DNA of 23,492 nt from Escherichia coli. GTDB lineage: Bacteria > Pseudomonadota > Gammaproteobacteria > Enterobacterales > Enterobacteriaceae. This document shows positions 14,132 through 14,208 of the stretch, piece by piece. The stretch lies in the NCBI RefSeq assembly GCF_003334765.1, contig NZ_QOWT01000046.1. One strand, given 5' to 3'. The translations under genes and the position numbers were made by a program. Numbering within the stretch: position 1 is the first letter of the stretch; each line of letters starts with the position of its first letter. The notes beneath the pieces are model-generated. The model worked only from the letters and a program-made list of their open reading frames with translations, was not told the origin of the DNA and searched no databases.

Positions 14132-14208
14132 CCGCCATTAGCTCATCAGGAAAGAGCGCCAGCCTTCGAAGCTGGTTGCGCGGAGTTCGGGTCCCCGAAG
14201 GCGGTCCA
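14132..14208 (+). tRNA. tRNA-Arg (UCG anticodon), possibly degenerate
   Basis: Cloverleaf with perfect anticodon stem CCAGC/GCTGG and loop CTTCGAA, but one mismatch each in the acceptor and T stems and an unusual T-loop TTCGGGT; ends TCCA. Confidence 0.55.

Follow-up and report, generated by a model that had tools for sequence, protein, structure and literature searches.

A structurally defective, probably degenerating argN allele in the ileZ–argN–argO tRNA cluster of an Escherichia coli prophage

The ileZ–argN–argO cluster and its known relatives

In Stx2 phage 933W (AF125520), three tRNA genes precede stx2AB and are annotated as ileZ (AUA), argN ('CGH; CGG?') and argO (AGA; AGG?). We found the same arrangement in a stretch of 23,492 nucleotides from Escherichia coli (NCBI RefSeq assembly GCF_003334765.1, contig NZ_QOWT01000046.1), the whole of which is hereafter called the window. 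Here, ARAGORN predicts three tandem + strand tRNA genes with anticodons CAT, TCG and TCT (Table 1). The middle one lies between an ileZ identical to that of 933W and a nearly identical argO, and both the upstream promoter region and the downstream terminator are conserved. It shares 70 of 77 bases (90.9% identity) with 933W argN and has the same UCG anticodon, length, U73 and encoded CCA. Judged by its sequence, the middle gene is argN of the ileZ–argN–argO cluster first annotated in 933W. The gene itself is already known, and public genome annotations already include the window allele. The identity to 933W argN and the presence of identical copies in hundreds of genomes mark the sequence as a real element, far beyond chance. 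The two loci nevertheless differ in two respects. First, 933W argN is a clean cloverleaf (A6-U67, G52-C62, T-loop TTCGAGT) that scores 54.8 bits with Rfam, whereas window argN has three defects and scores 43.4. Second, in place of stx2AB, the window has two STnc100 copies and an esterase gene.

The region upstream of ileZ aligns column for column with the segment labeled 'pT; putative tRNA promoter' in 933W (AF125520), and a possible rho-independent terminator is annotated in 933W at the matching place after argO. A simple sigma-70 scan called no promoter at pT, where the -35 hexamer matches 3/6.

Table 1. Features of the tRNA cluster in the window
Feature	Position	Strand	Basis
Putative tRNA promoter pT (TTGCAG, 17 nt, TATTAT), ending ~10 nt before ileZ	14011..14039	+	933W homology only
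ileZ, tRNA-Ile(CAU), first gene of the cluster	14049..14124	+	ARAGORN; Rfam, 72.5 bits; 933W ileZ; NCBI pipeline tRNA-Ile
argN, tRNA-Arg(UCG), window-type allele, 77 nt	14132..14208	+	ARAGORN; Rfam RF00005, 43.4 bits
A6 facing A67 (14199): A·A mismatch in the acceptor stem	14137..14137	+	Sequence; pair flagged by Rfam
Anticodon TCG (U34 C35 G36), loop CTTCGAA, intact 5-bp stem	14166..14168	+	ARAGORN and sequence
A52 facing C62 (14194): A·C mismatch in the T-stem, beside the universal G53-C61	14184..14184	+	Sequence; pair flagged by Rfam
T-loop TTCGGGT, with G58 (14190) replacing the nearly universal A58	14186..14192	+	Sequence
argO, tRNA-Arg(UCU), third gene of the cluster	14222..14298	+	ARAGORN; Rfam, 70.1 bits; 933W argO
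Intrinsic-terminator-like hairpin with T-run, closing the tRNA cluster	14313..14340	+	Terminator scan

More distant relatives of argN are chromosomal tRNA-Arg(UCG) genes, for example in Planctomycetota, Terriglobia and Omnitrophota assemblies. They have the same 77-nt class-I layout, and a 23-nt segment of their D-stem and anticodon arm (AGAGCGCCAGCCTTCGAAGCTGG) is identical to argN, but their acceptor stems (starting with G1-C72), D-loops, variable loops and T-stems are different. All of them have A58 in the T-loop, and every stem is fully paired; neither holds for window argN. The annotated Arg tRNAs of E. coli K-12 have ACG, CCG and UCU anticodons, and a UCG isoacceptor is absent. K-12 also has an Arg tRNA with the CCU anticodon.

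Known tRNA pseudogenes, in cryptic prophages and in other genomes, provide another point of comparison. Like them, argN shows uncompensated losses, a reduced covariance score and progressively damaged relatives. Unlike them, window argN is not flagged by any tool that we used and keeps every recognition element of arginyl-tRNA synthetase (ArgRS).

The slot of argN can also hold a different tRNA. A Lys(UUU) allele (for example, NZ_CP032265.1 1639634-1639710; phage PPompW_EH2246), 80.5% identical to argN and labeled tRNA-Lys in copies that our blastn survey detected, likewise follows directly after an identical ileZ and shares with argN the acceptor stem type, D arm, T-loop family, U73 and CCA. 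Its anticodon arm, TCAAC-CCTTTAA-GTTGA, has the UUU anticodon and C33 instead of U33, and differs from argN at two stem pairs, each altered on both strands. The T-stem mismatch of this allele is A51·C63, whereas that of window argN is A52·C62. Next in order comes either argO, as in phage PPompW_EH2246, or tRNA-Thr and tRNA-Gly. The Lys(UUU) allele scores 44.4 bits and is present in 798/5426 complete E. coli genomes; among the listed copies, many slightly diverged ones are unannotated. Since it occupies the argN slot with shared acceptor, D and T arms, we regard the second slot of the cluster as a labile chassis whose identity, as far as sequence comparison can tell, has changed at least once.

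The cluster trio matches 289 phage records, mostly Stx2-converting phages. Over 6 kb, the window has 100% identity with several E. coli chromosomes, and its sequence identifies it as a non-Stx lambdoid E. coli prophage with the DicB/Qin-type layout. The gene order is antitermination protein, DNA methyltransferase, tRNA trio, esterase gene, holin and lysozyme. Rfam searches additionally detected sok antitoxin RNA at 9350-9524 (+), DicF at 1419-1470 (-) and IS009 at 23273-23471 (+), all typical contents of a Qin/DicB-type cryptic prophage; in the homologous prophage of ATCC 11775, a hokD-type toxin adjoins sok. The STnc100 sRNA copies, at 14374-14564 and 14842-15051 (+), score 136 and 165 bits and occupy the position of stx2AB in 933W, which itself has a single STnc100 copy after stx2B, adjoining AsxR; in other loci AgvB is adjacent. 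The methyltransferase ORF (349 aa, 12950-13999, +) ends 50 nt before ileZ; the stretch that its final codons overlap is also conserved ahead of the tRNA cluster in 933W, where such a gene is absent. Following the STnc100 copies, a SASA-family (NanS-p-like) esterase ORF of 617 aa (15274-17127, +) is intact in the window; its counterpart in ATCC 11775 is only a DUF1737 pseudogene fragment. Two ORFs, 14103-14348 (-) and 14176-14457 (+), run across the three conserved tRNA genes, are unannotated in RefSeq and were set aside.

Our literature search found no mention of the gene names ileZ or argN and no Arg-TCG or tRNA-seq evidence for argN. Incidental mentions comprise SNPs in 'the first tRNA-Arg' between O157 clades (PMC2858043) and remarks of a general kind about lambdoid phage tRNAs and rare codons (PMC7946995, PMC3636060).

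Cloverleaf and scores of the window allele

Read by hand, the acceptor strands of window argN are CCGCCAT and AAGGCGG, with U73 and the encoded CCA following. U8 and A9 are succeeded by the D arm GCTC-ATCAGGAAA-GAGC and G26, then by the anticodon arm CCAGC-CTTCGAA-GCTGG, the variable loop TTGCG and the T arm CGGAG-TTCGGGT-CCCCG. The four stems (7, 4, 5 and 5 bp) contain 19 standard pairs out of 21. The two exceptions, A6·A67 and A52·C62, are exactly the pairs that are non-standard in the Rfam alignment. Tertiary bases U8, A14, G18, G19, A21, U33, G53, T54, T55, C56 and C61 are present, and A58, which is close to universal in elongator tRNAs, is changed to G. Throughout the argN family, position 15 is U and position 48 is G, which is an unusual pairing of bases at these sites. 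A preliminary description of this DNA had reported a middle Arg-UCG tRNA with an acceptor A-A mismatch, a T-stem A-C mismatch and a TTCGGGT T-loop, and both the sequence and the Rfam alignment bear this out.

The same description considered the neighboring Ile(CAU) and Arg(UCU) genes canonical. They score 72.5 and 70.1 bits, but for Ile(CAU) the statement is not fully accurate, as Rfam flags a non-standard A27·C43 at the top of the anticodon stem of ileZ. Because this pair is invariant in essentially all surveyed copies, it is a tolerated or required feature, not damage. tRNA-Ile(CAU) of the ileZ type reads AUA after lysidine modification. In the anticodon loop of argO, 933W has G37 (CCTTCTGAGC), and the window and most loci have A37.

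The identity set of E. coli ArgRS comprises A20, C35 and G36 or U36. Window argN has this set, with A20 in the D-loop ATCAGGAAA and C35 and G36 in the anticodon. Moreover, the whole anticodon arm is the same as in clean argN alleles and in the chromosomal tRNA-Arg(UCG) genes. Since this arm is unchanged and the three changes amount to plain structural damage, nothing supports the suggestion in the preliminary description that the gene might have an altered function, and an altered decoding function of the window allele appears unwarranted.

Scoring with a tRNA caller and a covariance model gave an intermediate answer. ARAGORN calls the gene, and its score of 43.4 bits (E=2.4e-6 over the whole window) exceeds the RF00005 gathering score of 29 bits but is clearly low, also next to those of its two neighbors. 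Clean alleles of the slot score 54-59 bits, those with G58 alone 54.0, A52·C62 alone (phage Nil3) 50.4, the window type 43.4 and 42.9, and the window type with an additional G50A 37.5; the heavily mutated, core-replaced and 66-nt deletion classes described below all fall under 29 bits. Window argN thus falls 11-16 bits short of the clean alleles. It is also below every one of the 28 E. coli K-12 tRNA genes tested (48.5-79.2 bits), that is, 24 genes with a short variable arm at 62.0-79.2 bits and 4 with a long arm at 48.5-57.6; the Arg tRNAs of the host score 64.1-72.1.

Folding energies show the same difference. The cloverleaf of window argN has a nearest-neighbor energy of -20.0 kcal/mol versus -28.3 to -31.3 kcal/mol for clean alleles, and reverting the three changes brings it to -31.3 kcal/mol. 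The predicted best fold of window argN is not a cloverleaf, a competing UUCGG/CCGAA hairpin being enabled by G58 and A67 (z-score -0.45). We rejected the minimum-free-energy fold as a test of function, however, since the best folds of the conserved ileZ and argO are not cloverleaves either. The cloverleaf probability of ileZ is 4e-4, and only relative cloverleaf energies were used.

The T-loop is TTCGAGT, TTCAAGT or TTCGAAT in clean argN alleles and in chromosomal tRNA-Arg(UCG) genes from other phyla. Because the chromosomal genes of these unrelated phyla have A58 T-loops and fully paired stems, the three features of the window allele (T67A, G52A and A58G) are to be read as derived. Relative to both groups, window argN has lost conserved bases and pairs without compensation.

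Variation of the three genes among phages and genomes

To survey the argN slot, IMG/VR was scanned with anchors only at the end of ileZ and the start of argO, which gave 120 loci, or 125 together with the window and four phage loci. Cloverleaf-compatible alleles were found in 60/125 loci and the window type, combining A6·A67, A52·C62 and G58, in 23/125. In 11/125 loci the gene is still 77 nt long but heavily mutated, with pairs 1-72 and 2-71 and the D-loop GG lost and a CYCGGGT T-loop. In 24/125 loci, unrelated sequence stands in place of the anticodon arm (78-84 nt); 6/125 have a 66-nt deletion form typical of Stx2c phages, and 1/125 has another indel. ARAGORN called the middle gene in only 87/125 loci.

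To control for sampling bias, we also scanned reciprocally, with the ends of argN as anchors, and obtained 118 loci with full flanks. In this set, ileZ is ungapped and essentially identical in 110/118 loci, with a mean of 0.05 substitutions, and argO is clean in 90 loci, defective in 18 and truncated in 10. The corresponding numbers for argN in the neighbor-anchored set (n=136) are 46 clean, 52 defective and 38 gapped. Truncated argO copies break off after about 10-40 nt.

The union of the surveys comprises 159 loci and 57 argN alleles. Every stem substitution in these alleles produces a mismatch or a G·U pair, and none is compensated; in argO, one lineage has a compensated C-G to G-C change in the T-stem. 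A67 is confined to the window-type family (25 loci, 6 alleles), and all clean alleles have T67 and hence an A-U pair. A52 is found in 27 loci and 8 alleles, where clean alleles have G52. G58 is more widespread (43 loci, 17 alleles) and is seen on otherwise perfect alleles in several backgrounds. Near-universal positions have been struck repeatedly on differing backgrounds: A58G in 17 alleles, G52A in 8, T54G or T54C in 9 and C61T in 2.

Several alleles of the slot depart further from argN. In the core-replaced form, present in phage mEp460_ev081, phiP27 and 24 IMG/VR loci, the acceptor, D and T arms are kept, and the anticodon arm has given way to about 27 nt of unrelated sequence that could form a 7-bp hairpin with a 3-nt loop. 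These alleles also have a run of G just before the T-loop, varying from 5 to 13 G between loci. In one IMG/VR allele, the anticodon has become GCG and one pair of the anticodon stem is broken as well (CCATCCTGCGAAGCTGG), another independent change in the slot. The 66-nt relic of Stx2c phages resembles a deletion derivative of the Lys(UUU) form.

Complete E. coli genomes were examined in the same way. The exact 77-nt window allele occurs in about 232-246 of 5426 genomes (>=99% identity), including the type strain ATCC 11775, and the NCBI pipeline and RefSeq label it tRNA-Arg, not a pseudogene. Sequences alignable to window argN occur in 4696 places in 2014 genomes and fill all identity bands, from 100% to 60-80%; a blastn count was used here as well, since megablast requires a 28-nt exact word and misses diverged alleles. 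For comparison, ileZ was found in 7527 places in 3057/5426 genomes, with a copy >=99% identical to window ileZ in 90% of the records, and argO in 6223 places in 2369 genomes.

A dedicated scan for the window-type haplotype block extended the earlier set of 23 loci to 110 IMG/VR loci. There are 10/77 segregating sites in argN, 5/76 in ileZ and 5/70 in argO. The comparison of argN (10/77) with its neighbors (10/146) gives an odds ratio of 2.0 and is not significant (Fisher p=0.14). Across the whole ileZ–argO stretch, 41/110 loci are identical to the window. Further damage to argN is present in the block, with the CCA changed to TCA in 22 loci (20%), G10T in 4 and G50A in 4; reversions were seen for A52 to G in one locus and for G58 to A in one locus. 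In argO, a pair of substitutions that breaks G53-C61 and one acceptor pair is present in 16/110 loci of this block.

Codon demand and the fate of argN

We compared codon usage in identically derived, crude ORF sets from the window (5677 codons) and from a core segment of the host (14036 codons). The codons of the two outer tRNAs are strongly over-represented in the window: ATA 3.3x (Fisher p 3e-10), AGA 6.4x (p 2e-13) and AGG 8.4x (p 4e-11). For argN, CGA is 1.7x more frequent (p 0.04), and the 1.26x ratio for CGG is not significant (p 0.19). E. coli decodes CGA with the abundant tRNA-Arg(ICG), encoded by four genes, and CGG with tRNA-Arg(CCG), whereas decoding of AUA, AGA and AGG depends on scarce tRNAs. 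Because the host reads CGA and CGG abundantly and AUA, AGA and AGG scarcely, and the prophage barely over-uses CGA and CGG, selection should be strong for ileZ and argO and weak for argN. This expectation matches the observed pattern of conservation.

Taken together, these results suggest that window argN is probably a degenerating allele, weak or dead. In lambdoid (Stx-type) prophages, the ileZ–argN–argO cluster has the Q antiterminator region on one side and the lysis genes on the other. Transcription probably proceeds from a small promoter that belongs to the cluster, within the late transcript or both, and the RNA would then be cut into three tRNAs that supplement decoding of AUA (ileZ), CGA/CGG (argN) and AGA/AGG (argO). 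In the window allele, T67A, G52A and A58G cost the acceptor stem and the T-stem one pair each and the T-loop its closing base, whereas the CCA end, anticodon arm and ArgRS identity bases are untouched. Under weak selection, argN would drift, carried along between two strongly selected neighbors, and the window allele would most likely yield little or no stable, chargeable tRNA. The preliminary description had left a choice between a decaying gene and a tRNA of altered function. The former is partly supported, and better so than the latter, by the graded series of alleles, the uncompensated changes, the conserved neighbors and a score below those of the host tRNAs.

Alternatively, window argN may still be a working tRNA-Arg(UCG) that tolerates its two mismatches and G58; phage tRNAs often get by with unusual features. 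If so, it may be processed, charged by ArgRS and help to decode CGA (and CGG) when the prophage is induced, though perhaps not as efficiently as the product of the 933W allele. We regard this as possible but doubtful. ARAGORN, the Rfam gathering score and the NCBI pipeline all pass the gene, its anticodon arm, A20, C35, G36 and encoded CCA are intact, and CGA is mildly over-used in the window (1.7x, p=0.04). The allele is also common, widespread and stable, with about 37% of the block loci unchanged and variation within the block not significantly in excess (p=0.14). Moreover, since ileZ is clearly conserved despite its invariant A27·C43, one A·C mismatch need not disable a phage tRNA, and alleles without any other flaw have G58 in several backgrounds. 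On the other hand, A58 is close to universal, and in the window allele three destabilizing changes share a single acceptor/T-arm stack, bringing the score below all 28 host tRNAs and 11-16 bits below clean alleles. Further evidence against a working tRNA comes from the rest of the family: sister alleles grade into complete wrecks, no allele has a compensated change, the encoded CCA is lost in 20% of the family and some copies have extra stem breaks.

The slot might also be viewed as one tRNA chassis with constant acceptor, D and T arms and CCA, whose anticodon arm is repeatedly exchanged or remolded and not simply rotting. Versions observed so far are Arg(UCG), Lys(UUU) with its C33 loop, and anticodon-less forms. 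Such turnover could reflect an arms race with tRNA-cleaving systems (PrrC, PARIS-type nucleases, colicin D), in which the versions with low scores, the window allele among them, would serve as spares or decoys that resist nucleases rather than being dead genes. We consider this extended proposal improbable, and there is a small chance that the turnover of the slot is adaptive.

It is highly improbable, in our assessment, that argN is kept as a non-decoding, tRNA-like RNA. As such, it may be an RNase P/RNase E substrate whose processing helps to free ileZ and argO from the common precursor, or a decoy or spare substrate for tRNA-targeting nucleases; a role of phage tRNAs in countering tRNA-cleaving defenses has been put forward and, in some cases, demonstrated (PMC10264068, PMC11555353). 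Consistent with this idea, even alleles with a replaced or deleted anticodon arm keep their 5' 16-25 nt and, at the 3' end, the acceptor/T-arm segment with CCA, and core-replaced alleles fold into the acceptor, D and T arms plus the new hairpin. However, the fold z-scores of relic alleles are not significant (-0.9 to -1.5), one class of alleles has lost acceptor pairs 1-72 and 2-71, a G to C change breaks the new hairpin in 5 loci, and covariation is absent across the 159 loci and 57 alleles. Conserved ends are also expected from recombination between prophages via the flanking conserved tRNAs. Finally, sequencing or assembly errors in the window have a negligible chance of accounting for the odd features, as the same 77 nt are found in about 240 independent complete genomes and dozens of IMG/VR contigs, and the surrounding 6 kb is 100% identical to several finished chromosomes.

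For the window itself, the finding is of little importance: argN has long been annotated, and its defects most likely mean that the gene is being lost. The tRNA-Arg label that this allele bears in hundreds of E. coli genomes, despite a score below every host tRNA tested, implies that counts of functional prophage tRNAs are probably inflated, and the Lys(UUU) version of the slot could merit attention with regard to phage tRNAs and anti-phage tRNA nucleases. More generally, within one three-gene operon, ileZ hardly changes, argO mostly stays intact and argN is found at every stage of decay. If argN is indeed being lost, this contrast would offer a clean natural example of phage tRNA genes persisting only where codon demand is real.
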